Virus record (IMG/VR): IMGVR_UViG_3300042922_000725
Location: 28,584 to 92,583 of that record
Strand: one strand, 5' to 3'
DNA length: 64,000 bases
Source: a virus
The position numbers and the translations under genes were made by a program. The notes beneath the pieces are model-generated. The model was not told where the DNA came from and did no database searches. It saw nothing but the letters and a program-made list of their open reading frames with translations. Shown here piece after piece: positions 9,069 to 60,252 of the stretch; the stretch's first letter is position 1, and each line of letters begins with the position of its first letter.

Positions 9069-10574
9069 ATGGCAAAGCCTCAAAAACAAGTAGAAATTGA
9101 TAATTTAAGTTCGGAATTGGCGCACATCTCGTCACAGAAAGCATATGTTAATAAAGATATGACGACGGCAGAAATTCAAGCAAAAGCTGATAGCCTTATT
9201 AACGGTGGAATATTAGAATTTATATATTCAAACGAGTATATAATTACAGAGGCTATTTTACTAAAGCCTTACACGACTGTAGAAGGTAATAATAGTAAAA
9301 TAACGGTAAATAGTGATATAACTGTTTTTGCTACATTGGGGTTGACTGAAACATATAGTAATATAATTATTCAAAATTTAGAAATTTGGGATAATGGTGT
9401 TTTGGCACGTAGTAAATATCACATTGATTTAAAAAATGCAGTTGTCTCAAGTATATTTAATGTAAAAATTTATAGTGGAACAATGTCTCCTAGTGATGTC
9501 GCAGGAATTAAATTTTCGAGAAATGAAGCAATTTCCACTTTTGTAAATACTGTAGAAAAATGTGTTTTAAATCAAGCCAGTATAGTCATGGAATCAAGTG
9601 ATTCATGGATAAAACATAATACGATTTGGGCATATAGTAGGAGTTTCGGCATTCATGTAGTTAAAACAAGTCAATTTATATCGGAAAATCAGATTGTTGG
9701 AAGCCCTGTGCATGGTGGCATATATGTAAATGATATAATAGACAATTTCAACATTGAACTATTGAAAATAGTAGATAATTATTTTGACGGTTCTTATGAT
9801 TTAATAGATTCGGGTATAGGCATCAAAGGGAATAAACTTGTTGAATGTTTAATAACCAATAATGATTTTTGGAGACAAATGGATGAAGCAATTATATTAA
9901 CATCTTCAAGCGATAATAAAATTATTGGTAATACTTTTAAAAATTGTAATAGACGTGATAATTCGAAATCAGATATAGTGATAAATGGTGGCGGATATAA
10001 CATAATTGCCTCAAATGGATTTACACGACAAGTTGTGCATACAAATAAAGGCAAAGCTATTAGCGGGACATCAACCAATAATAGTATATATGGCAATATG
10101 ATATATTTCGATAGTTATTATTTGGCACCGATAATTGATGTTGATGCTACAAATAAATTGCTAAACAATCTAAATAGCAATGTAGTTGACACAAAAAGAT
10201 TACCATCTAAGTCAATCTTAACATTTTGGCAAGATGGCGTAGCAGCTAGTGTAGGGTTAACATCTGTAAATACAAATGGAAGTGCATTAAAATCTTATAT
10301 ACTAGGTTACAATGCAAAGATTCTCGCAATAAGTTTAGTTGTTAGTATTCCAAGGACGGCAGGAACACTAGTGCTTACAGTTTACAAAAATGGTGTTTCT
10401 ACAGGAGAGCTTCTTACCTATAATACTGGTGTCTATACAATGAATAAAACATTTACAACTCCTATAACAATTACAACATCAGATGCTATTTCTTTAAGAT
10501 ATAATACAGACTCAAGTTGGCTGCCAACAACATTAAATTTCTCGGCTTCTTTGTTAATAGAAATTAGCGAGTAA
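9069..10574 (+). CDS. Tail spike/depolymerase with right-handed beta-helix (pectin-lyase-like)
   Basis: AEIQAKAD...GG.L..Y.I...I.L N-terminus; repeated I..N.F/I.GN parallel beta-helix rungs. Confidence 0.75.
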   Translation: MAKPQKQVEIDNLSSELAHISSQKAYVNKDMTTAEIQAKADSLINGGILEFIYSNEYIITEAILLKPYTTVEGNNSKITVNSDITVFATLGLTETYSNIIIQNLEIWDNGVLARSKYHIDLKNAVVSSIFNVKIYSGTMSPSDVAGIKFSRNEAISTFVNTVEKCVLNQASIVMESSDSWIKHNTIWAYSRSFGIHVVKTSQFISENQIVGSPVHGGIYVNDIIDNFNIELLKIVDNYFDGSYDLIDSGIGIKGNKLVECLITNNDFWRQMDEAIILTSSSDNKIIGNTFKNCNRRDNSKSDIVINGGGYNIIASNGFTRQVVHTNKGKAISGTSTNNSIYGNMIYFDSYYLAPIIDVDATNKLLNNLNSNVVDTKRLPSKSILTFWQDGVAASVGLTSVNTNGSALKSYILGYNAKILAISLVVSIPRTAGTLVLTVYKNGVSTGELLTYNTGVYTMNKTFTTPITITTSDAISLRYNTDSSWLPTTLNFSASLLIEISE

Positions 10575-10585
10575 TTTAATTAAGA

Positions 10586-10636
10586 AATAAAAATAACTGA
10601 ATTGTATTGGTAGAATATAAATCAGTTATTTTTATT
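10586..10636. terminator. Bidirectional terminator between the convergent spike and acyltransferase genes
   Basis: Perfect 15-bp inverted repeat aataaaaataactga/tcagttatttttatt. Confidence 0.7.
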
Positions 10637-10654
10637 AAAAATCATCAGAATATT

Positions 10655-11770
10655 TTAATTTCTTATGGTTACGAGATTTATTTTCATCATAAATATATTG
10701 GTTTTATAATTAATATATTTATGAAATTTGTTTAACAAGACCGATATAAAGATAATCATTGCTAAATAAATAAAAAAAGATACAAACAAGGGGAGTCTAA
10801 ATAATATAAAATCATAGCTATACATGAAAGCTCCATGTAATAAATAAATCTCAAAAGAAATATTCCCTAAAAAATAATAAAATATAGAAAATTTATTGCA
10901 ATTTGTTAATTTAATAAAAATAATTATGGCTATAATAGCAAAAAACATATTTATTGAATTACTAAATATATAGTTTGTTTTAGCATTAAGTTTAATTAGA
11001 ATTATTAACAATATAAGAAAAGAAAACATTAAATTAATTGATTTTATTTTTATTTTTTTTCGTAAAGTAAATAGCTGATTGAAAATTTTATCTTTATAAA
11101 ATGATAAGAATACTCCTAAAGTAAAATTAAAAGAATTATCCCTGAATAATTGTTTGTTTTTCAATATGCAAAATAATATTGTAGAAATGATAAATAATAT
11201 CAAAATATTATAGCTCTTTTTTATTTTTAAATTTATTGTGAAATAGAATATTAGATACCAGAACAACAAATAGAGTATGTACCAGTAATTTCTGTCAACT
11301 AAGTTTAGTCCAATTATTGATAATAAAATTGATTTTATTGAGTACTTATAATTTAATAAAATAGAATTTAACAAAATCCATATTATATTTAAAAGTAAAA
11401 AGGGTATATATATTCTAACTATTTTTTTATAAAAAAAATTTTTAATGCCATTAAGTCTTGCTGATTCGGTTAATCCATAACCGGATAAAAACAGAAATAT
11501 TGGAACCATAAAGGAACCAACTGTAGGGAAAATATAAATGGATTTATTGGAGTGTAAAGCATGTACAGCTAAATGTCCTACTACAATATTAAAAATGCAA
11601 AACCCCCTCAAAACTGTTGTAAATTCAATATTCATAGGTTTGTTATCTTTATATTTTTTTCTTGGAATAAAAGCTATAATATAAAACACAGAAATCAAAA
11701 GAATACTTGTTATTAAAGGATATCGATCAATAAGACTTATCTTGTCGTAATTTTTAAAAAGAAAATTCAT
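10655..11770 (-). CDS. Membrane O-acyltransferase (Acyl_transf_3/OafA family)
   Basis: LRGFCIF.IV.GH, V.IFLFLSGYGL, WYI, LG.ISFEIYLLH motifs; multi-pass membrane protein. Confidence 0.9.
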   Translation of the reverse strand: MNFLFKNYDKISLIDRYPLITSILLISVFYIIAFIPRKKYKDNKPMNIEFTTVLRGFCIFNIVVGHLAVHALHSNKSIYIFPTVGSFMVPIFLFLSGYGLTESARLNGIKNFFYKKIVRIYIPFLLLNIIWILLNSILLNYKYSIKSILLSIIGLNLVDRNYWYILYLLFWYLIFYFTINLKIKKSYNILILFIISTILFCILKNKQLFRDNSFNFTLGVFLSFYKDKIFNQLFTLRKKIKIKSINLMFSFLILLIILIKLNAKTNYIFSNSINMFFAIIAIIIFIKLTNCNKFSIFYYFLGNISFEIYLLHGAFMYSYDFILFRLPLFVSFFIYLAMIIFISVLLNKFHKYINYKTNIFMMKINLVTIRN

Positions 11771-11884
11771 TAAATTACCTCCTTAAACTTATACAATTAT
11801 AATAACATATGATATAATAAAAGTTAAGATTTCATAAAAATTAAAATATATAAATGCAATTAAATAAATTAATGAGGTGATAAT

Positions 11885-13240
11885 TTGCAGTTAAAATTGA
11901 AATATTTTTTATTATATGTTATGTTTATTCCACTAATTTTTTTAATAGGAATAACTTCGGTTTTACCCATAAAATACATTTTGTACACCATAACTACATT
12001 ATCAATGCCATTTGTTATTATCTTATTGTGTAAAAAAAATAATATATTAATAGCGTTAATGATATATTCGTTCATTATTGATTGTAGTGGTATGCTTATT
12101 AGCACAATGATTAAGCCTGCTTTATTTCTATTATTAATTTTAATATCAATATTTAGTATAAAAGAAAGAGTTGATAAAAACACAAAATTAATATTTTTGA
12201 TATTATCAATTGTAATACCGATGTATGGTTTTATTGTATCTATTGTAAGAGGTAATATGTTAAGATATGCTTTAAGTGATGCAAATGGATATGTATTTTT
12301 AATTACAGGATATTTTTTTATTTTATTAATTAAAAAAAATAATAAACTTAAAGATACAATTAAACTACATTTATTAATAGCTACATTAATTGTATCTTTA
12401 TTAACAATACTTATGTTTTCATTAGTTTATATTGGCAAACTAAACATAATTGATGTTAATTCAATTTTAAAAAATGAAGGTATAGGATTAGCTTCAATAG
12501 AAAATGGTAATTATAGAATTTTTTTAGGTGGACAGATATATGTTTTATTAACTGCGTTATATGTATTTAATAAATTAATTGATAATAAAACTAAAATAAA
12601 TAAAGGGCATATCGGGTTATTTTTTATATATGTGATTGCATTAATTTTATCAAATACTAGATCGTATTGGATAGCAATGTTTATTGGAATAGGTCTATCA
12701 ATATTATTGCAAAAATTTTCTATTAAAAAAATAGTAACAATAATATTGATATTTTTAGTGACTTGGGGGACAATTTTACGTTTGCCGCAGGAATATGTGA
12801 GCAATTCATTAGATAGAATACAAAGCATTACAGATTTCAGTAGAAATAATATTTCTAATTATAATAGAATACTTCAAAGTTCAGAGTTATTATATGAATT
12901 TAAATTGTATCCAATATTAGGAAAAGGATTTGGGGCAACCTTAACAGATGGTTATACTAGAAATATTGAAGCGCCATATACATTTGAGCTAAGTTATTTG
13001 GAGTTATTATATAAATTAGGGATAGTAGGAATGACATTATTTGTTTTGGCTTTAATGTTAGGATTAATAAAGTTTTATAATGTTAAAGACAATTTTATGA
13101 TATCATTTTTGGTATCTACTTATCTTAGTTTTCTTTTTGTAAGTTCAACAAATCCATTTATAGTTTCAGGGATGGGTATATTTTTACTAGCACTTTTATT
13201 TGTGTTTTCTGAAACAGTAGATTCTGTCAAACAACAATAG
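11885..13240 (+). CDS. O-antigen ligase/Wzy polymerase-like membrane protein
   Basis: About 12 TM helices; LSNTRSYW, S...R, PILGKGFG and ELSYLELLYKLGIVG motifs; TTG start with gaggtg RBS. Confidence 0.85.
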   Translation: MQLKLKYFLLYVMFIPLIFLIGITSVLPIKYILYTITTLSMPFVIILLCKKNNILIALMIYSFIIDCSGMLISTMIKPALFLLLILISIFSIKERVDKNTKLIFLILSIVIPMYGFIVSIVRGNMLRYALSDANGYVFLITGYFFILLIKKNNKLKDTIKLHLLIATLIVSLLTILMFSLVYIGKLNIIDVNSILKNEGIGLASIENGNYRIFLGGQIYVLLTALYVFNKLIDNKTKINKGHIGLFFIYVIALILSNTRSYWIAMFIGIGLSILLQKFSIKKIVTIILIFLVTWGTILRLPQEYVSNSLDRIQSITDFSRNNISNYNRILQSSELLYEFKLYPILGKGFGATLTDGYTRNIEAPYTFELSYLELLYKLGIVGMTLFVLALMLGLIKFYNVKDNFMISFLVSTYLSFLFVSSTNPFIVSGMGIFLLALLFVFSETVDSVKQQ

Positions 13241-13475: not shown

Positions 13476-14969
13476 ATGCTACCAATTCAAAGGAAACCTA
13501 TATCTTTTAACTATACAAATTCAACCGATGAAAGATTATATATAGTAATTCATGATACTGGTAATAAAAATAGTGGCTCAAACGCACTAGCTCATTATGA
13601 ACTTTTCAATAGTGGAGACAAACAATCTAGTGCTAATTATTTTGTAGATGATTCAAATATTATTGAAACAGTTGACCCTAATAGTAGATATTCATGGCAT
13701 TGTGGAGACGGCAATGGGAAGTATGGTATTACAAATAGAAACTCTATAGGTATTGAAATATGTATTAATTCTGATGGAAATTATGATGTGGCTGTAAAAA
13801 ATGCGATAGAACTTACTCAGTATCTTATGCAAGCTTTCAATATTTCAATTGATAAAGTTGTTAGACATTATGATGCAAGTAGAAAGAATTGTCCGGGTAC
13901 TATGTCGGATAATAATTGGGAGAAATGGAGTTGGTTTAAATTGCAATTACAAAATAAATTACCAGAAGGATTTAACGAACAATTTTATTTATACGCCAAT
14001 TTAGATATTAAACAAGCTGTTGAGAGTAAAGTATTTTCAAATGGAGCATCTCACTATGTAGAATATGGATATAAAGATATTCCTACAAGAATATACAAAC
14101 CAACACTACCATTGGATTTTAAAGAGGAAGGTTATTTAGCTTTAAATGGAGATATAAAAAAAGCAGTAGAATTAAAACAAATTCCAAGTGGTTCATGGCA
14201 TTGGTTAATTCAAGGATGGACAGAAGGGAGACCTTACAAATATGACAATAATCCACCTAAATTTTATGAAACAGAACACGATGAGATAGAAGAACCTACA
14301 CCAATAGTAGAAGTTAAAACGCCTATTATGGGAAATGCTACAGCTATGGTTGAACAAGCTCAAGAATGGGCAAGGTCTAAGTCAGCTCCTCAAGAATTTA
14401 TTGATTTAGCGCCTTTATATTGGAAAATATGGACAGAAAGAGCGGGTTTAAATCCAGTTATAGGGTATGCACAATTTGCACATGAAACAGGATATTTATA
14501 TAAAGTACCTAGTGCAGCAGGTGTAGATGCAAGTTTCAAGAATCCTTGCGGTTTAAAAATAAGTCAAGGTGGGGGAGACTACGAAGCCAATGCACATAAA
14601 AGATTTGCAAGTTGGGAAGAAGGTATTACAGCTCATTGTGACCATATGGCTTTATATGTTGGAGTAAATGGATATCCAAAAATAGACACTCCTGACCCTA
14701 GACATTTTTCATTTATATTTGGTACAGCCAAATATGTTGAAGATTTATCTGCTAAATGGGCACCGTCTACAGAGTATGCAAGTAAATTATTAAAGTTTAA
14801 GAAAGAAATTGAAGAAACTATTGCTCCTATAGTACAAGAACCAGTTGTAGAAATTCCAACAGAAATACCTCAAGAACCACAAGAAGATTTTAAGGCTCAA
14901 ATCAAAACTAAGCTAGATATGATTAACATATTATCAAACCAAATAATATTATTATTAGAAAAACTATAA
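13476..14969 (+). CDS. Endolysin: N-acetylmuramoyl-L-alanine amidase (Amidase_2) + two repeats + glucosaminidase-like domain
   Basis: YIVIHDT, SWHCGD, NSIGIE, VVRHYDAS.KNCP; C-terminal AHETG/NPCGLK/WAPS..YA. Confidence 0.9.
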   Translation: MLPIQRKPISFNYTNSTDERLYIVIHDTGNKNSGSNALAHYELFNSGDKQSSANYFVDDSNIIETVDPNSRYSWHCGDGNGKYGITNRNSIGIEICINSDGNYDVAVKNAIELTQYLMQAFNISIDKVVRHYDASRKNCPGTMSDNNWEKWSWFKLQLQNKLPEGFNEQFYLYANLDIKQAVESKVFSNGASHYVEYGYKDIPTRIYKPTLPLDFKEEGYLALNGDIKKAVELKQIPSGSWHWLIQGWTEGRPYKYDNNPPKFYETEHDEIEEPTPIVEVKTPIMGNATAMVEQAQEWARSKSAPQEFIDLAPLYWKIWTERAGLNPVIGYAQFAHETGYLYKVPSAAGVDASFKNPCGLKISQGGGDYEANAHKRFASWEEGITAHCDHMALYVGVNGYPKIDTPDPRHFSFIFGTAKYVEDLSAKWAPSTEYASKLLKFKKEIEETIAPIVQEPVVEIPTEIPQEPQEDFKAQIKTKLDMINILSNQIILLLEKL

Positions 14970-50220: not shown

Positions 50221-50676
50221 ATGCAATTTGCACTAGCATTTTTATACTTAATACTTGAGACAATATGGATAGTCTATATAACGTTAGTCTTTCTTAAGAA
50301 AGATAATATAAAATTAATAAATTTAAAAGTTCTAATTCCTATAACAGGATTTTCTTTATTAGTTAAATATCACACATCCTCATCTATGCTTATACAAATA
50401 GTTTTAGCAATATTGTTATATTCTACAATAATATGGATTCAAAATTATAAAATTAATCCATTAAAGGTTTTTGGTTTTACAATATTGTCCTTTCTAATTA
50501 TGTTTGGTATAGAGTTATGTGTAACAAAAATAATATTTGACTTATTACATATTAATGCTTTTTTAATAAAAAATAATGTTGTTTTACATTTTATTATTAA
50601 TTTACCAATTAAGAGTATAATGTATACAATATTATATATAAATTACAATAAAAGGAGGATTGCAAACTATGTTTAG
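50221..50676 (+). CDS. Stand-alone AgrC-type membrane sensor domain (no kinase)
   Basis: About 5 TM helices with ILET.. and ..IE.. patterns typical of AgrC/VirS N-termini; overlaps the agrD start. Confidence 0.55.
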   Translation: MQFALAFLYLILETIWIVYITLVFLKKDNIKLINLKVLIPITGFSLLVKYHTSSSMLIQIVLAILLYSTIIWIQNYKINPLKVFGFTILSFLIMFGIELCVTKIIFDLLHINAFLIKNNVVLHFIINLPIKSIMYTILYINYNKRRIANYV

Positions 50677-50776
50677 AAAATTATTATCTTTAACAGCATT
50701 CGTATTCGTTGGTGTTGGAACAATGGTTGGAATGTGTTGGTTTGTGGGTTATCAAGAAGAAGCTCCAAAGCTTTAA
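50669..50776 (+). CDS. agrD: AgrD-like cyclic peptide precursor (35 aa)
   Basis: MFRKLLSLTAFVFVGVGTMVGM-CWFVG-YQEEAPKL; aggagg RBS; directly upstream of agrB; not in the ORF track. Confidence 0.85.
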   Translation: MFRKLLSLTAFVFVGVGTMVGMCWFVGYQEEAPKL

Positions 50777-50794
50777 TAGGATAAAACAAAACTA

Positions 50795-51382
50795 ATGATT
50801 ATAAAAATTGCAGAACATTATGCTAGATTACTTGTTGAAAAATCTAGCGAAACAGAAAGAGAGTATCAGATATATAGATACTCTCTTATATTTTATATCA
50901 GTACAATATTCCAACTAACATTGATATTTTCTATGACCTATTTACTAGGCTTATTTTTATATGCACTACCTATTGTTTTAATGTACATTCCTCTAAGAGC
51001 TATTGCCGGAGGATATCATCATAAATATTTAGGTAATTGCACCTTATTTTCCATGATTGAAATAATATTGTTCTCATATTTAGCTAAATCACAGTATTTA
51101 AACAATGCAATCTCGATAGCTTTTATTTGTATTTTTATGATAGTAACTATTATAACATCTATGCCAAAAGACAATATTTATTTAAAACCAACAAATAGAA
51201 ATAAAAAAATTGTAAAGAAGTTATATATCATAGTTTTAATTTTAATGACTGTATTAGTGATAGTATTTCCTAATTTACAATCATTTTTATTAGCTGCTAT
51301 TACATATTCGTGTTTACAATGTAGTAACCCTTATTATGTTATTAATATATGGGTAGATAAAAAAATAAAAATTGAATTATAA
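50795..51382 (+). CDS. agrB: AgrB-family peptide-processing membrane protease
   Basis: YQIYRYSL; PLRAIAGGYH.....NC (catalytic His/Cys); PKD...KP. Confidence 0.9.
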   Translation: MIIKIAEHYARLLVEKSSETEREYQIYRYSLIFYISTIFQLTLIFSMTYLLGLFLYALPIVLMYIPLRAIAGGYHHKYLGNCTLFSMIEIILFSYLAKSQYLNNAISIAFICIFMIVTIITSMPKDNIYLKPTNRNKKIVKKLYIIVLILMTVLVIVFPNLQSFLLAAITYSCLQCSNPYYVINIWVDKKIKIEL

Positions 51383-52576: not shown

Positions 52577-53620
52577 TTACAAGGCACTCTTTAAAATGCA
52601 ATCCAATCTCCTTCCCTTTACGAAACTTTTAATTCCATATTGTACGTTCATAAAACTATTTATTACAACTGTTAAGGTAATTGCTGAAACCTCAATTGCA
52701 AAAATGTGAATAAGTATATTACTTGTTATGAATATAATAGCTCCGGCAATTCCTAATTTTAAGCTATTCGTTCTTATCATTTCATGGATTTTATCTTTTG
52801 TTTCTTTTCCATGTTTTAAATTATCAATATATAATTCATTAACTTGTAAGTTTCTGTTTAGTTCATCAACATCAATACTGTTTCTACTTAATAACCATTG
52901 AATTAAAGGATTGATGATAAACATTAAGCCACTATTTATTAATAAATTATCAGCTACTAAATTACTTAATAAGCTGCTAATAACTAAACTTGTTGTATAT
53001 GTATTTCTTCCCGAAAAACTAAGCTTATCAACTTTGCCTTTATAATGAATATCAATATCTTCTGTACTTTTTAAAATTCTGTAATTATATGTAAATAACA
53101 ATCCTATAGAAGCAAATGTTAACAAGGTAGACACTAAGCTTCCTGTAGATAATCCTATAATAATTTTTGGAATACTAAATATAAAATTAAGTAATATTGA
53201 AATTGAAATTCCGTCGATAGTTTTAAGTTTATCTAGTTTGTCAATTATAAAAGTAGTTGCTGTAGATTTTAATATGTTGAGCGATAAGGAAATAAAATAA
53301 TTAATACCATCATACCGACTTGAAACTATTAATCCTGTTATTATGCCAGTTGCAATTGATAAAGTTTTTGTATATTTTGATATTTGGATTTTATTAATGT
53401 CTGGTTTTATAGATTTAATAGTTTCTATAATACTAGAGCTGATTAAATAAGGAGTATATGATGGTATATTTTGATTTAGGCTTACTGGGAATTTATTTAT
53501 ATTATTTATTTTTAATTTATCTAAGAGTGTAATTAAAGTTTGAACTGTAGTACATTTTAGTGTTAACGTTAGTATATTGTTTATTTTATCAGTTGCTATA
53601 TTAATAGAATTTTTATTCAT
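52577..53620 (-). CDS. Divergent SecY-like preprotein translocase homologue
   Basis: Colinear SecY motifs: TPYLISSSII, ISKYTKTLSI, IDGISISILLNFIFSIP, DELNRNLQVNELYIDNLKHGKET, SAITLTVVI. Confidence 0.7.
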   Translation of the reverse strand: MNKNSINIATDKINNILTLTLKCTTVQTLITLLDKLKINNINKFPVSLNQNIPSYTPYLISSSIIETIKSIKPDINKIQISKYTKTLSIATGIITGLIVSSRYDGINYFISLSLNILKSTATTFIIDKLDKLKTIDGISISILLNFIFSIPKIIIGLSTGSLVSTLLTFASIGLLFTYNYRILKSTEDIDIHYKGKVDKLSFSGRNTYTTSLVISSLLSNLVADNLLINSGLMFIINPLIQWLLSRNSIDVDELNRNLQVNELYIDNLKHGKETKDKIHEMIRTNSLKLGIAGAIIFITSNILIHIFAIEVSAITLTVVINSFMNVQYGIKSFVKGRRLDCILKSAL

Positions 53621-53641
53621 AATATTACACTCCTGATTTAT

Positions 53642-53812
53642 TTATTTTAAAATAAAATATGTAGCCGAATAATACTTTCTCATTCCCTTATCATTAATTA
53701 TCTCAAATTGCAATCCATTATTGCTTTTATATGTATGCTCTATTTTATATCTCTTTTCTTTAGTTAAAAAATATTTAATATCAATTTTACTGGTTATATA
53801 TTGATTACTCAT
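53642..53812 (-). CDS. Hypothetical 56-aa protein
   Basis: [24 protein letters not shown]...IINDKG.RKYY; overlaps the thyX stop. Confidence 0.5.
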
Positions 53813-54638
53813 GATTGTTCTTTTCTGTTAATTGTTTTAATGTTGGATATCTTCCACATGACATATTACCTTCTTTACAGTATCCTAATTGTACACATGA
53901 AGCTCCTGCCTTTTTAAATAAGGTGGGGGCTATTTTTTTTACTTCAATCAACATTGCATAGGCTAATTCTTGTATCTCGTCTTGTGCTCTAGAACAGCAA
54001 CGATGATTGAAAAAATTTAATAAGCTTCTAGCATTCATGGTTACGATAATTTTTGTTTCACAAGCGTTAGGGAAAACATATCTTGCATTTTCTATAGCTT
54101 TCTTTTCAAATTTACTATAAAGTTTTTTATTATCACTCTTAATTTCATGTAAAGCTTGATTAATATAATCAATATTTTTAAAATCCCAATAATCTAATTT
54201 TAAATGTTCAGCTATATAATGTTTAATCAAACCTTCAACTAGACTATCATAGTCTCTTTGTGATTGTTTCATATTCTCTATGTATAACTTTCTTAATTCA
54301 GTATATCTATCTATTTCTTTAGGAATAATATATTCAAATTGATTCAATCTGACATATCTTTGACTTTGCTGAGAATAAGATGCTATCCTATGTCTAACTA
54401 GTTGATGTGAAAGGCTTCTACTAACACCTTCTATTCCAAATGTAAATGAAACGTGTTCTAAAGGTGATTCATGCCCAAGAGATATTAACATATTTACAAA
54501 TTTATCAATGTTTTCTTCGGTTAAATCTTCTCCTATTTCGTCAATTGTTGAAGCAGAATAACATAATTTCCCTGCTTGAGCTATTACCTTTTCAGGATTT
54601 GGTGTATGTTCTAATATTTTTACTTCTAATTCTACCAT
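53805..54638 (-). CDS. thyX: FAD-dependent thymidylate synthase
   Basis: GHESPLEH and the [14 protein letters not shown] signature; upstream TTGACA-17-TACTAT promoter at 54773-54745. Confidence 0.97.
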
Positions 54639-54808: not shown

Positions 54809-57079
54809 TTATTCGAACTTTACTTCTTTAACGCTATCATTTGTACTTCTCAAGTTCAAAATAAAGTTCCCTTGGTTTCTTACTCTGCTTTTTAGGTATT
54901 CGTATAAACACCTTGTCTCTGAATTTTTCCCAGTAGTGGCAATATCATCAAGTTTAAACTCTTTAATTTTTCCCTTTTCCGTTGTAATTGTAAAGTTAAG
55001 AATTTTACTAGGATTAATTACACAAGCCATTACTTTATTATTTTCAGATTCTCCCAAATTCATTGCTTGGTTTCCTTGACTATTTCTAGATTGCTTGCTT
55101 GATATTTCTTCTACATTGACAAGTACGCCTTTACATTCCTGTGAAATCATAAACACATCTACATCGTTTTTAATGTATTCTATATCTAATAATTTACTTT
55201 CTATAGAGTAACAATTTTGAAGTTTTTTATTTGCAGATATAAAAGATTTAATATCTACTTTGGAGATTTTACCATTTTCATAAACTGATAATATATAACC
55301 CTGTGCTTTTGTTTCATCTTCCAATGATACTAATTTAATTACTTTTTCATTTGGTTCAAGGTCTATTAGATTTGGAAGATATTCTCCTAATACAGAAGGT
55401 TTAGAATCAGAAATATCATAAGCATTAAGTTTATATCTATTGGCTTTATTGGTTATACAATATAGTGTTGATTTATTAGTTGAGTCTATTTCTTGTATGA
55501 TATTATCATTATCTTTTAATTTTTGCTCGTCGGTTCCCTTTCCTCTGAGGGATGTTAATGGGATTTTCTTAATCCAATTTTGTTCTGTGAATATTATTTT
55601 GGTGTTATAATCAGGAACGGTATCAAGTTTTGAAATATCTTCAATATTTTCATCTGTAATTATTTCTGTTTTACGCTCAACACCGTATTTCTCTTTAATA
55701 TTTTCTAGCTGAGATATTATTATATCTTCTATTTTTTGGTCAGAGCTTAAAATTTGTTGAAGTTCCATTATTTGATTTTTAATTTCGTTAACGTTTTTAA
55801 TTTTCTTTAGTATCCAGTCTTCGTTTATATTAATCAGTCTAATTGTTGAAACATATTCAGATTGTGCTTGATTTAAATTAAAGTGATTTGTTAACTTATC
55901 AATAGCTTCTTTTTCTGTTTTAGATGTTCTGATTAATTTTATTGCCATGTCTAAATCTTGATTAATCAACTCTAGCCCTAGAAGTTTGTTTAAATCTTCA
56001 TTTAATTTGTTAATATCATATGTTAATTCACCCTTTATACATGTGGTTCTATGAATCAACCATTTAATATAAATATCTTTTAAAGACATAAGCTTTGGAG
56101 TTTTTCCATCTAAATCTAATACGGTAAAGTTACATGAAAATTTTGATTCATAAGGAGTATACTTTCTTAGTTTTTGTTCAAATTGTTTTAAATCCGTATT
56201 CTTTTTTAAATAGATGTCTAACTGAATACCTTGTCTTCCATTATTGTTGTGAATATGGGTAATTTCTTTAAATAATCCTTTGTCATAGGCAGCTATAAGT
56301 TTTGTTTCAATATCTTCAATATATGCTTCATACGGAACTTCTATAATTGAAACTTTGCTTTCTTTTTCATCGTAAATATATTTACCTAATAAAGTAAAAC
56401 TTCCTCGACCTGTCTTATAAATAGTATTAAAGGTATTTTTATTATATATTATTCTACCACAAGTTCCTATGAAGTCTGGACATTGCAATATTTCTATAGC
56501 TTTATCTATATCTTTGTTTAATATAAATGATTTTAAGCTATTACATGTTTCTATTAAATTATGAGGTGGTATTTTAGACGCTTCCCCAACGGCTATACTT
56601 TGTGATATATTAGTTAGTATATTAGGGATTATTGATGGAAGTAAAATAGGTTCATCTTCTGTATTATCAAAATTTCTTTTAGTAGGAACTATGTTTTTAT
56701 TAATTCCTTCTAACATACTTTCAGAATAAGGACTTAACTTACATTCAACATATCTAGGACTCGCTCCATCATCTTCTTTCTTTCTCTTATCTCCATAGCT
56801 ACCTTTTGGTGTTAGATAAAAATAATTAAGTCCGTTGTTAGCCATGTTTTTCATAGCAGAGAATAGTGGAATATCTCCAAATATATAAAAGACCATTGCA
56901 AATGCTCCTGCTCTATGGAGCTTTATAAATTGTTTGTCACTGTTTATTTTATTAATGTGCAACGCCCAAATGACTTTTCTTTGAACTGGAAGTAAGCCAT
57001 CGATACTAGGTAAATTATTGATAAGTACGGGGCTACAAAATTCAGTAAATTCTTCTTTTAATACTTCAACTATGTCCAT
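54809..57079 (-). CDS. Type IIA DNA topoisomerase subunit A (GyrA/ParC-like)
   Basis: LP..DGL.PVQRK; ASPRY catalytic Arg-Tyr; IAVG.AS.IPPHNL; PDF; degenerate CTD. Confidence 0.92.
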   Translation of the reverse strand: MDIVEVLKEEFTEFCSPVLINNLPSIDGLLPVQRKVIWALHINKINSDKQFIKLHRAGAFAMVFYIFGDIPLFSAMKNMANNGLNYFYLTPKGSYGDKRKKEDDGASPRYVECKLSPYSESMLEGINKNIVPTKRNFDNTEDEPILLPSIIPNILTNISQSIAVGEASKIPPHNLIETCNSLKSFILNKDIDKAIEILQCPDFIGTCGRIIYNKNTFNTIYKTGRGSFTLLGKYIYDEKESKVSIIEVPYEAYIEDIETKLIAAYDKGLFKEITHIHNNNGRQGIQLDIYLKKNTDLKQFEQKLRKYTPYESKFSCNFTVLDLDGKTPKLMSLKDIYIKWLIHRTTCIKGELTYDINKLNEDLNKLLGLELINQDLDMAIKLIRTSKTEKEAIDKLTNHFNLNQAQSEYVSTIRLININEDWILKKIKNVNEIKNQIMELQQILSSDQKIEDIIISQLENIKEKYGVERKTEIITDENIEDISKLDTVPDYNTKIIFTEQNWIKKIPLTSLRGKGTDEQKLKDNDNIIQEIDSTNKSTLYCITNKANRYKLNAYDISDSKPSVLGEYLPNLIDLEPNEKVIKLVSLEDETKAQGYILSVYENGKISKVDIKSFISANKKLQNCYSIESKLLDIEYIKNDVDVFMISQECKGVLVNVEEISSKQSRNSQGNQAMNLGESENNKVMACVINPSKILNFTITTEKGKIKEFKLDDIATTGKNSETRCLYEYLKSRVRNQGNFILNLRSTNDSVKEVKFE

Positions 57080-57090
57080 AAAATCTCCTT

Positions 57091-59130
57091 TTACTCAATG
57101 TTATTTAAGTCAATTTTAGTTATATTTTCTCTTATAAATTCTTTTCTTGGTAAGGTGTCTGTATCCATAAACATTTCAAAATGTTTATTTATCAAAGCTT
57201 CGTTCAATTGGTCATATTCTACAGGAATAAAAGTTTTTTTTCTTGCCTCATCAGATAAAACATATAACCAAAAATCCTCTTTGTTAAATTCTCCTAAACC
57301 TTTTTTTATTCCGATAGTGTATTTTATATTTTTAGAATTTAATTCTTGAATTAAGTTTTCTTTTTCAATATCATTATATGCAAATAAGCTTTCTTCTGTT
57401 TTTGTTAATATAAATTCATATCTAGGAGATGTAATTAAATACACTCTGTTTTGTTTAAGTAATGTTGGCATAAATTTATACATAAAGGTTAATATTGACA
57501 GATTTATTGCCCTACCAAAGGCATCTCGGTCACAAAGTATTCCAAGTGAACCATAATTTAAATTATCTATATTAAATGTTTGGATATCTTTATATTTTTT
57601 TCTTTCTTCATAAGGTATTTCTATTCCACAACCCAATGCATTAATAATTCTTAAAGCAGGTTCATTGTCTAATACATCAGATACTTTGGCTTTATAACTA
57701 TTAATAAACCTACCTCTTAATCCACAACAGCCCATTATTCTAGGGTCAATTGAGTTTTCTATTGTAGAATTAGCAGAAATACCTTCATCTACAATGAATA
57801 TGCGTTCCTCAACTTTTGATTTTTTAAAATCACAATGTTTAACGCCCGGTATTTTACTGAATGAGGATTTTGTTTCACCTTGTAATTTTTTCTTTATATC
57901 TAATTTAGATTGTTCAGCTTTTTCATTTGCTCTTTTATTAATAAGGCACTGTCCTATAATTTTATCTGCAACAAGTTTGTTTTCTGTAAAATATACTATT
58001 AGTTTATCTTTTAAAGAGCTTGTTGTAAAGTCTTTTATAAATTTATTATTTATGCTTAATTTAGTTTGATTAGCATAGCTCGTCATAGTTGAAAAACTAG
58101 AAATCATACAACTAAAACTGTCTTGTATATCCGTAAACTTTATTTTACTTTCGTTTTTGTTATATAAGTTGTTATTTTTTATATATTCATGAATTGCATT
58201 AGTAAAAGCACTTTCAATAGCTTCAGCAGTTGAACCACCCTGCAATAATTCAGAACTATTGTGAAAATATTGTAATGTATTAACAGTATTGTTAAAAACA
58301 AAAGCTATTTCGTAACTAAATTTATATTCTGGTTTATCACTTCTATCTTTACCTATTCCACTATCACTGAAAGTTATAATATCTGTTATATTTTCATCAG
58401 TAGTTATTTCTTGCAGATAGTCTACAATTCCATTTTCATAAAAGTGGGTGTATATAATATCTGCACTTTCGTCATAAACATCTATTTTTAAACCTTTGTT
58501 GACCACAGTTTGTTTTTTTAACTTATCATTTATCCAATCTATGGGTATATTGATATTTGTAAAAACTTCTAAGTCTGGCTTATAATAAATTTTTGTTCCC
58601 TGCTCATTATCAATATTTGACTCCGTTTTTAAAACTCTTTCTCCTTGTTCTTTGCTAAATAAATTATCATCATCATCACAAATGAATTCTTCTGTATTTT
58701 TGTCTACTGGTCTGCCTTTTTTGAATTTAGTAGTGTATTTTTTGCCATCTCTGTATGATATAACATTCATGTAGTCTGATGCATATTGTGAACTGGTAAG
58801 ACCTAATCCATTAAGACCTATTGAAGTGGAGTCTGCGTCATAATTGTCAGAAGCATACAATACTTTTAAAGCCAAGTCCCAATTGTAAGCATTTTCTTTT
58901 TCGTTCCACTCCATAGGTAGTCCATCTGCAAAATCTAATACAGAATAATTTAAATCTTTATGTTTGATGATTTTAATATAGTTCCCATATCCTTTTCTAT
59001 ATCTATCTATAGAATTACTCGTAATTTCAAACAAGGTATGTTGGCACCCTTTTATGTCATCTGAACCCATCATTACAGAAACTCTTTTTCTAATTCTTTC
59101 AGAACCTTTTAATCTTGTTAAATCTGCCAA
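57091..59130 (-). CDS. Type IIA DNA topoisomerase subunit B (GyrB/ParE-like)
   Basis: EI..NSID, GLNGLG, NQTK, EG.SA, GLRG, D.D..G, KGLGE; TTG start. Confidence 0.92.
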   Translation of the reverse strand: MADLTRLKGSERIRKRVSVMMGSDDIKGCQHTLFEITSNSIDRYRKGYGNYIKIIKHKDLNYSVLDFADGLPMEWNEKENAYNWDLALKVLYASDNYDADSTSIGLNGLGLTSSQYASDYMNVISYRDGKKYTTKFKKGRPVDKNTEEFICDDDDNLFSKEQGERVLKTESNIDNEQGTKIYYKPDLEVFTNINIPIDWINDKLKKQTVVNKGLKIDVYDESADIIYTHFYENGIVDYLQEITTDENITDIITFSDSGIGKDRSDKPEYKFSYEIAFVFNNTVNTLQYFHNSSELLQGGSTAEAIESAFTNAIHEYIKNNNLYNKNESKIKFTDIQDSFSCMISSFSTMTSYANQTKLSINNKFIKDFTTSSLKDKLIVYFTENKLVADKIIGQCLINKRANEKAEQSKLDIKKKLQGETKSSFSKIPGVKHCDFKKSKVEERIFIVDEGISANSTIENSIDPRIMGCCGLRGRFINSYKAKVSDVLDNEPALRIINALGCGIEIPYEERKKYKDIQTFNIDNLNYGSLGILCDRDAFGRAINLSILTFMYKFMPTLLKQNRVYLITSPRYEFILTKTEESLFAYNDIEKENLIQELNSKNIKYTIGIKKGLGEFNKEDFWLYVLSDEARKKTFIPVEYDQLNEALINKHFEMFMDTDTLPRKEFIRENITKIDLNNIE

Positions 59131-59142
59131 AATATCACTTCC

Positions 59143-60252
59143 TTAATTGTTTATATTGTTATGTGTAGATATTATTTCTACATTTTTTAAACAAAATAAT
59201 GTTTGATTAGGCTTTAATTTTATCTTACAACCTTTTTTATTTTTAATACTATTACTTTCACTTAAACTTTCTATATCATTTATGTAATTTATAAATTTTA
59301 GCCATTCTTTACAAACAGAATATTTAACTTCTTTTGATTCCGTTATTTTTTCATCGTAGCAACGTCTTAACATATCTCTCCATTTGTCATATAAATAATG
59401 ACTTTGTGGTTTGTTTATTTCTTTTCCCACAATTCCTACATCACAAACATAAGGAGCATCCCAATCTTTAATATGCCCATTGGATATTTCTTTAGTTTCA
59501 GCAACGGTTTCAAATCCTGTATTTATAAACTTAACTTTTCTTTTACCATTCTTCAGATTTTCTATAATCTCAAATTTATATCCTTTGGAATTACTATATA
59601 TTTCTCCCACTAGAAATTTATTTATTTTAACTTCTTTTTCTTTATAATTAAAATCAGTAATGCCTTCTTTAGACCACTTAAAACCATAGAATATTAAGTT
59701 TTTCTTTGTAGCTTGGCGAATTCTAAAATTAACTTGATTGAAATTAAAGTTTTCTATATTTCTTTTACTATCAAGTAGATAATTCGTAGCTTCATTATAG
59801 GAATTAAATTCAATTATATTATCTTCGCTTATAGCTAGAATAGGAATAGCATTTTGAGGGATACTACCTTTTTTAAATCTGGTTTCTTTTCCTACTTTTA
59901 TAACGTGTTCAGGCTCCCCGTTTTCACTTTCTGAAGCAATGTTATTATAACCCATTTCTACACTATTATATTGTAATATATATTCTGTTTCTATTTTAAA
60001 TAAGTCTTTTAAAGGAACTATATCTAATACTTGAAATGTAAAATCACTTATACCATACTTCAGCATATCAAACAATAAACTTCCTTCTTCATTATTGGGT
60101 TGTTGTAAAGAAAAATAACCTCTGTGATAAGCATTTATATAATCATGCCATCTTTCAGTTACAACTCTTCTTGTGGCTCCTATATAATTTTTATTTGAGG
60201 TTATACAATGTATTAGGTATATATAACCGTATTCTTTTTTACGTTTAAGCAA
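59143..60252 (-). CDS. GIY-YIG homing endonuclease with NUMOD-like DNA-binding repeats
   Basis: GYIYLI...KNYIG.T; RW; E..YI..YNS...GYN; TRFKKG; LY..W.DML.RCY. Confidence 0.85.
   Translation of the reverse strand: MLKRKKEYGYIYLIHCITSNKNYIGATRRVVTERWHDYINAYHRGYFSLQQPNNEEGSLLFDMLKYGISDFTFQVLDIVPLKDLFKIETEYILQYNSVEMGYNNIASESENGEPEHVIKVGKETRFKKGSIPQNAIPILAISEDNIIEFNSYNEATNYLLDSKRNIENFNFNQVNFRIRQATKKNLIFYGFKWSKEGITDFNYKEKEVKINKFLVGEIYSNSKGYKFEIIENLKNGKRKVKFINTGFETVAETKEISNGHIKDWDAPYVCDVGIVGKEINKPQSHYLYDKWRDMLRRCYDEKITESKEVKYSVCKEWLKFINYINDIESLSESNSIKNKKGCKIKLKPNQTLFCLKNVEIISTHNNINN

Follow-up and report, generated by a model that had tools for sequence, protein, structure and literature searches.

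We describe a phage-borne gene for a compact and divergent SecY, located on a stretch of 64,000 nucleotides (nt; hereafter the window) that covers bases 28584-92583 of the 92,583-bp IMG/VR virus record IMGVR_UViG_3300042922_000725 (CheckV completeness ~52%). SecY, a universal and essential housekeeping protein, forms the core of the channel through which bacteria export proteins. It is known that phages exploit this host channel, but to our knowledge none is known to bring its own channel core. Homology, fold and conserved motifs show that the protein encoded here (P0001) is a true member of the SecY/Sec61-alpha superfamily and that a known family is represented here by a new, reduced form in an unusual carrier. 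All conclusions are computational; they suggest that the export channel itself may be supplied or manipulated by some phages, and a conserved phage-borne SecY clade would show viruses acting on export at the level of the channel.

The reading frame and its start signal are placed as follows.

52577..53620, minus strand: SecY-like coding sequence of 347 amino acids (aa), from the open reading frame (ORF) listing, Pfam, profile, Foldseek and VIA-align

53630..53634, minus strand: Shine-Dalgarno sequence AGGAG, 9 nt 5' of the ATG at 53620, read from the sequence

In-frame stop codons lie directly 5' of this ATG, so that an N-terminal extension of the ORF is impossible.

The Pfam SecY model PF00344 matches the protein with 36.9 bits (gathering cut-off 32.2, E 3.5e-9) from residue 57 to residue 319, which covers positions 9-300 of the 306 in the model, and in a six-frame search of the whole record with this model the ORF scored 32.7 bits. 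A phmmer search of the PDB sequences with the single protein sequence gave no match, and profiles were therefore needed. When a profile was built from 11 family members, T. maritima SecY came first with E 9.7e-18, the next 17 chains being all SecY, and hhalign of the same profile against E. coli SecY returned a probability of 96.9% (E 1.4e-10), aligning phage residues 53-306 with E. coli residues 80-390. The first-pass annotation, which had proposed a shortened and divergent SecY homologue, listed a series of motifs colinear with SecY; each pair aligned as proposed. PHROGs holds no family for the protein.

The fold points in the same direction. A first AlphaFold2 model, based on 11 sequences, reached a predicted local distance difference test score (pLDDT) of 63.8, and a second one (mf4c98c2d539e, 43 sequences) a pLDDT of 74.9 with a predicted template modelling score of 0.69. 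The best 50 Foldseek matches in the PDB were all SecY or Sec61-alpha. VIA-align superposed the second model on SecY/Sec61 chains, whose two halves of five helices each build an hourglass channel, with Z 21.8-19 and a root-mean-square deviation of 3.6-4.0 Å over 300-313 residues (Z 21.8 and 3.6 Å over 303 residues for the best one), placing model residues 24 to ~340 on SecY residues ~26-35 to ~425. The ESM Atlas's own model compares with a SecY cluster at a template modelling score of 0.81. SecY was thus found by the very profile and structure searches on which the first-pass annotation had staked its proposal.

Kept and lost channel features were read from the alignment to E. coli SecY, with family counts over 11 members. 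The order of the transmembrane (TM) helices TM2-TM10 is the same as in SecY, TM2b-TM10 were modelled by AlphaFold2 and the TM3 motif is kept. Three further segments carry the recognizable core.

53444..53452, minus strand: P57-Y58-L59 at the start of TM2b, equivalent to E. coli P84-Y85-I86

53204..53242, minus strand: residues 127-139 (DKL..L..IDGIS), end of TM4, loop and start of TM5, matching the SecY signature GE.I...GIGNGIS

52793..52831, minus strand: residues 264-276, cytoplasmic 8/9 loop, in which K269-H270-G271 is equivalent to E. coli R357-P358-G359 and is followed by ETK

Y58 is invariant in the family, and the block D127-S139 is its best-conserved part. Both segments contribute to the pore ring, with L59 and I138, respectively. 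Five of the six ring positions are aliphatic in P0001 (L59, I138, I142, L212, V318), and the corresponding positions of E. coli I86, I187, I191, I278 and I408 are occupied by leucine, isoleucine or valine (methionine) in nearly all 11 members; the sixth, E. coli I82, aligns to Y55 and is variable across the family. In E. coli SecY, SecA and the ribosome dock at R357-P-G359 of the 8/9 loop. The R357 position is lysine or arginine in all 11 members and the G359 position glycine in 9 of them. The first-pass annotation had reported that the conserved arginine is replaced (IRPG by LKHG). This is correct but overstates the difference: the change from arginine to lysine is conservative and confined to the subclade of P0001, while 6 of the 11 members retain arginine.

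Around this core the protein is trimmed, its overall length being ~95 residues below that of housekeeping SecY.

53456..53620, minus strand: N-terminal residues 1-55, the apparently degenerate TM1/plug region, which falls 27-33 residues short of its E. coli counterpart

53018..53059, minus strand: residues 188-201, beta-hairpin of the 6/7 loop (AlphaFold2 and alignment), 12 residues shorter than in E. coli

Residues 1-55 are the least conserved part of the family (conservation 0.28) and show an alternating hydrophobic/polar pattern across it; their best 19-residue hydrophobicity window is 1.23. The plug region (residues 36-55) has no predicted helix, a pLDDT <50 and a length ~16 residues below that of bacterial SecY. 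The cytoplasmic 6/7 loop is likewise among the least conserved parts (0.33). Nine residues are lost from the 2/3 loop, only in the subclade of P0001, the outer loops 3/4, 5/6, 7/8 and 9/10 are down to 3-9 residues and the outer end of TM7 is truncated.

The helices are also unusually polar, as the first-pass annotation had remarked. Only 3 windows of 19 residues reach a Kyte-Doolittle value of 1.6, compared to 6-10 in 54 canonical SecYs; the family members have 3-7. The hydrophobicity of TM2b, TM7 and TM10 is 0.71, 0.56 and 0.98, respectively, against >1.9 for the E. coli counterparts. The share of serine, threonine, asparagine and glutamine is 0.20-0.30 in the family versus 0.20 in canonical SecY, with large hydrophobic residues being equal. 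AT-rich coding, which exchanges alanine and glycine for serine, threonine and asparagine, probably contributes to this polarity. Composition bias as its whole cause is ruled out, since further polytopic proteins encoded by this AT-rich phage have normal TM windows of 2.0-2.8.

P0001 belongs to a small clade. When 1.84 billion cluster representatives were searched exhaustively with phmmer, 18 proteins were recovered at E <= 0.001, none of them a canonical SecY; full-length matches are mostly 341-348 aa and the others are fragments. A profile search added a group of ~300 aa. Lengths stay at ~345 or ~300 aa down to 25% identity, and family members, with at least 184 bits, are separated by a score gap from canonical SecY with at most 69 bits. 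Clusters count up to 203, 108 and 107 members and originate from JGI, ENA and Logan metagenomes, on contigs of up to 95 kb. Among the sources are two labels of metagenome-assembled genomes, Treponema sp. and Firmicutes. Fused or longer forms of the family were not found, which is weak evidence. In a maximum-likelihood tree the ~345-aa and ~300-aa groups form one clade with a support of 100 in the Shimodaira-Hasegawa-like approximate likelihood ratio test. A long branch separates this compact clade from 42 canonical SecYs and S. aureus SecY2, its deeper placement being unsafe because of composition bias and long branches. P0001 has no match to the NCBIfam SecY model TIGR00967 (cut-off 253.6), for which the best member (P0009) scores 40.7 bits, or to the SecY2 models TIGR02920 and NF009082 (cut-offs 249.6 and 353), for which P0009 and P0010 reach 19-23 bits. 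The phylogeny against SecY and SecY2 that had been proposed thus yields a separate long-branch clade, and the protein is, as had been supposed, shortened, divergent and different from an ordinary housekeeping translocon subunit.

Within the reach of our searches, the compact clade appears to be confined to metagenomes; cultured phages, plasmids, GTDB species genomes and the other IMG/VR records seem to lack it. Scans with the A2, P0012, P0009, P0014, A5 and P0005 patterns revealed no further viral contig in IMG/VR, and the A2 and A3 patterns had no match in GTDB genomes. One metagenome pattern scan retrieved only the two peat loci described below (L002 and L003). Searches of INPHARED and PLSDB by tblastn with P0001, P0012 and P0009 returned nothing, or canonical Acinetobacter SecY in mislabelled records. 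The earlier remark that no characterised phage SecY is known held as well: we found no description of one in full-text literature searches, and among 50,697 phage records tblastn with E. coli SecY recovered only unverified records and host-type copies, of which those checked lie in ribosomal operons.

L002 and L003 are alleles from peat metagenomes, 53% identical to the window protein. Compared over 344 codons they show a synonymous divergence (dS) of 0.37 and a nonsynonymous divergence (dN) of 0.031, giving a dN/dS of 0.083. Purifying selection on the compact SecY is strong, and this value contradicts the neutral decay (pseudogenes) that the first-pass annotation had named as a finding against its proposal. 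In both loci the gene has its own upstream spacer, and thyX and orf56, its upstream neighbours in the window, are absent upstream. Directly 3' of it (L002:1399-1920, L003:3349-4592) lies a gene for a 173-aa VanY-type D-Ala-D-Ala peptidase with an N-terminal signal/anchor, followed by a 233-aa N-terminally anchored protein without Pfam match and, in L003, by the start of a GmrSD-like ORF (weak match). Homologues of the VanY-like and 233-aa proteins are absent from the phage of the window.

That the gene is phage-encoded, as first proposed, is borne out by the tail, TubZ and c-st-like topoisomerase genes of the record. The window encodes a tape measure protein, tail proteins, tail fibres, an endolysin, a Rha-type regulator and an integrase, in addition to ThyX, GyrA-like and GyrB-like proteins, a GIY-YIG protein, an NAD-dependent ligase, DUF1064 and AgrB. 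The features relevant to the present gene are the following.

53642-53812, minus strand: orf56 (56 aa), between thyX and the SecY-like gene

53805-54638, minus strand: thyX, upstream of the SecY-like gene

54809-59130: GyrA-like and GyrB-like subunits

50221-51382, plus strand: agr-like quorum-sensing cassette, at a distance of 1.2 kb from the SecY-like gene, which is on the other strand

9069-13240: surface-polymer module, adjoining the lysis genes

13476-14969: endolysin without signal peptide, beside a small N-terminally anchored protein and 38 kb from the SecY-like gene

C1:2100-2588, outside the window: TubZ-type tubulin

The GyrA-like protein shares 54% identity with its counterpart in Clostridium phage c-st (185.7 kb). 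Because of this c-st-like GyrA and the TubZ, the element appears to be a c-st-like phage-plasmid; the estimated completeness of the record fits a genome of ~180 kb. Its guanine plus cytosine content is 24-34%, and its host is probably of a low-GC Clostridium type. Phage c-st itself has no SecY-like gene of the compact type.

On the minus strand the genes are arranged in the order ligase, GIY-YIG, gyrB-like, gyrA-like, thyX, orf56 and, as the last one, the SecY-like gene. thyX and orf56 overlap by 8 nt and 21 nt separate the end of orf56 from the SecY-like start; the gene appears to be co-transcribed with both (53642..54638). It is convergent with DUF1064 and the agr cassette. The ribosomal (spc) operon setting with rplO-secY is absent, the flanks being thyX, the topoisomerase II subunits and DUF1064. 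The agr cassette consists of a 151-aa ORF with five TM helices, a 35-aa AgrD-like peptide (50669-50776; with an acidic tail after Cys-Trp-Phe-Val-Gly) and AgrB, which matches its Pfam model with E 3e-23. The surface-polymer module comprises a beta-helix protein with a C-terminal TM helix, an acyltransferase-3 on the minus strand and a Wzy_C-like protein with 12 TM helices, and could represent a serotype-conversion set as well as a source of clients for a phage channel.

In comparison to housekeeping SecY (PF00344; TIGR00967; T. thermophilus 5AWW, T. maritima 3DIN), the phage protein has the same fold (Z about 21) and shares the PY motif, the TM5 GxS signature, the hydrophobic pore ring and the basic-x-Gly motif of the 8/9 loop, whereas it is shorter, with TM1/plug seemingly degenerate, loops cut, helices polar and a place in a phage replication operon. 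The nearest functional analogy is the accessory SecY2 of the Gram-positive aSec system, a second divergent SecY paralogue of ~400 aa for special clients. However, S. aureus SecY2 groups with canonical SecY and not with the compact clade, and SecY2 systems have linked SecA2 and Asp genes, whereas the record (~52% complete) has no SecA_DEAD match at E <= 1. Among the viral proteins of BFVD, only A0A8S5RVC8 has a SecY fold (E 2e-9). This 'Preprotein translocase, SecY subunit' of Siphoviridae sp. ctHip2 comes from a metagenomic phage contig, is of canonical length (413 aa) and 14% identical, and may be a host-type copy; SecY is thus annotated on at least one further contig labelled as phage. The gut 'Hodor' megaplasmids carry SecY, SecG and SecE next to giant secreted proteins (PMC12934698, 2026 preprint). 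They are likewise mobile elements with their own channel core, proposed to serve their own secreted proteins, but there SecY comes with SecE and SecG, while the phage SecY stands alone, much reduced, in a tailed phage.

We propose, tentatively and at somewhat less than an even chance, that the protein works as the core of an alternative channel together with partners from the host. The Shine-Dalgarno sequence and the close packing behind thyX and orf56 are signals in favour of its expression, and the SecY-bearing megaplasmids are a precedent among mobile elements. Most likely, the infected cell would produce it along with the products of the replication and nucleotide genes. Once inserted into the host membrane, it would be the core of an alternative protein-conducting channel, borrowing host SecE, and perhaps SecG, for stability, with host SecA and/or ribosomes presumably supplying the driving force. 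Its job may be the insertion or export of phage-encoded envelope proteins; possible clients in this phage are the Wzy-like 12-TM protein, the acyltransferase-3, AgrB, the AgrD-like peptide and the 5-TM protein, and in the peat loci the anchored VanY-type peptidase and 233-aa protein encoded next to the gene. Since plug and TM1 are reduced, the outer loops very short, the outer TM7 reduced and the gate helices polar, such a channel might open more easily than the housekeeping one, similar to prl mutants, with relaxed substrate requirements. Should it alter what infected or lysogenic cells export (surface polymers, quorum peptide, wall enzymes), the gene would represent a novel type of phage conversion gene. 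The protein would also be a naturally minimized SecY, in which the need for individual parts such as the plug, TM1, the outer loops and the hairpin tip could be probed.

Several observations weigh against a working channel. Sequence identity is only ~16%, both in the profile alignment with E. coli SecY and in the Foldseek matches to SecY chains of T. thermophilus. TM1 and plug seem degenerate and are of low confidence in the models, which disagree at the N-terminus: the first has a helix at residues 9-35 with a pLDDT of about 35, the second a beta-hairpin (5-22), a short helix (26-35) and a disordered loop (37-50) at a pLDDT of 50-64. The tip of the 6/7 hairpin, which contacts the ribosome and carries R255/R256 in E. 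coli, is deleted. Normal membrane insertion and assembly are uncertain because most helices are below the usual hydrophobicity. Pfam searches of the record (92.6 kb, ~52% complete) gave no match to SecE, SecG, SecA or YidC at E <= 1, which extends to the whole record the earlier remark that secE, secG and secA are not recognizable, and the channel would therefore depend on host subunits. Finally, no neighbour is conserved between the window and the two peat loci; because the neighbours differ, the gene moves as a single cassette.

The same reductions can be read differently. A decoy would bind host SecE, SecA or ribosomes without translocating, titrating them and shutting down the biogenesis of the host envelope, thereby serving host take-over or superinfection exclusion through a block of receptor export. 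Such a function, which we consider unlikely, would agree with an 8/9 loop motif that is kept while TM1/plug, outer loops and 6/7 tip are reduced, with the polar helices, with the lack of encoded partner subunits in the record and with the position among early-type replication genes. Yet a decoy needs neither five hydrophobic pore-ring positions nor the TM4-TM5 signature, which are best conserved, and the cytoplasmic 6/7 loop, a main docking site, is poorly conserved. A working channel fits better than an inert decoy because pore ring, TM4-TM5 signature and basic-x-Gly motif are kept and selection is strong; the measured features thus lean away from the decoy, the entry-blocking channel and the FtsH or defence decoy that the first-pass annotation had considered. 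It is quite unlikely that the protein is an ungated, leaky pore that dissipates ion gradients or lets proteins or small molecules pass, as a holin-like lysis timer or a depolarising take-over factor. Plug deletions in SecY lead to leaky, prl-like channels, and the PDB entries 2YXQ and 2YXR, whose titles name such deletions, are among the top structural matches of the P0001 model. Both models show a short plug region without structure, TM7 lacks its outer end and in the peat loci the gene precedes genes for cell-wall hydrolase-like proteins. The lysis cassette of the window, however, with endolysin and small anchored protein, is 38 kb away from this gene of the replication operon. Phage holins are small, have 1-4 TM helices and lie beside the endolysin; 347 aa with 9-10 helices and a conserved SecA/ribosome loop are far more elaborate than any known holin.

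Other explanations retain the channel or deny any function. A divergent SecY could replace a target, being insensitive to a factor of the host or of a competitor that hits the housekeeping SecY (e.g., FtsH destroying jammed channels, an abortive-infection system or toxins entering through SecY), so that export continues during infection or lysogeny. The evidence for a working channel supports this equally, the divergence of the surface loops is extreme and a phage-plasmid lifestyle means long residence in the host; but no such factor is known for the host, the neighbourhood is without defence context and the proposal is a special case of the host-partnered channel rather than a distinct mechanism, for which reasons we regard it as improbable. 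We see just as small a chance for a self-sufficient minimal channel of 9-10 helices with little or no plug, working without SecE and SecG. This would provide a private route for proteins or peptides without ordinary signals, e.g., the AgrD-like pheromone or the wall hydrolases of the peat loci, and, if true, would be a new class of phage export device and the smallest working SecY known. Barely credible is a decaying, functionless remnant of a captured host secY. The protein is indeed shortened, divergent and polar and the L003 allele is interrupted by an insertion sequence, but the low dN/dS, the intact frame with its strong Shine-Dalgarno sequence, the length and motifs conserved in a clade with clusters of 100-200 members and the intact L002 allele all speak against decay.

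The interruption of the L003 allele, after ~codon 279, is due to an IS200/605-type element (L003:998-3012) with the following parts.

L003 998-1214: HEARO/omega RNA (142 bits)

L003 1265-2611: IscB-like ORF with RRXRR and HNH domains

L003 2602-3012: Y1 TnpA

The near-identical L002/L003 pair represents the empty and the filled insertion site, and the insertion looks like a recent hit rather than decay. A splicing IStron was considered for this element and rejected, as Rfam gave only the HEARO/omega RNA and no group I intron.

Three of the phage-labelled SecY matches agree with the host gene at 99.8% identity. In the two that were checked for context, MD-2021a and MT835508, SecY lies within a ribosomal operon, and the S. 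aureus records are flagged UNVERIFIED_ORG. CAKLQH020000003.1, MT835508.1, OR844989.1, OR844994.1 and others contain canonical SecY in ribosomal operons or host SecY2. Such records are bacterial contigs and would mislead a naive search for a phage SecY.

In the replication operon of the window, a GIY-YIG protein of 369 aa (59143-60252, minus strand) is encoded between the gyrB-like gene and the ligase gene, and may be a homing endonuclease inserted in this operon.

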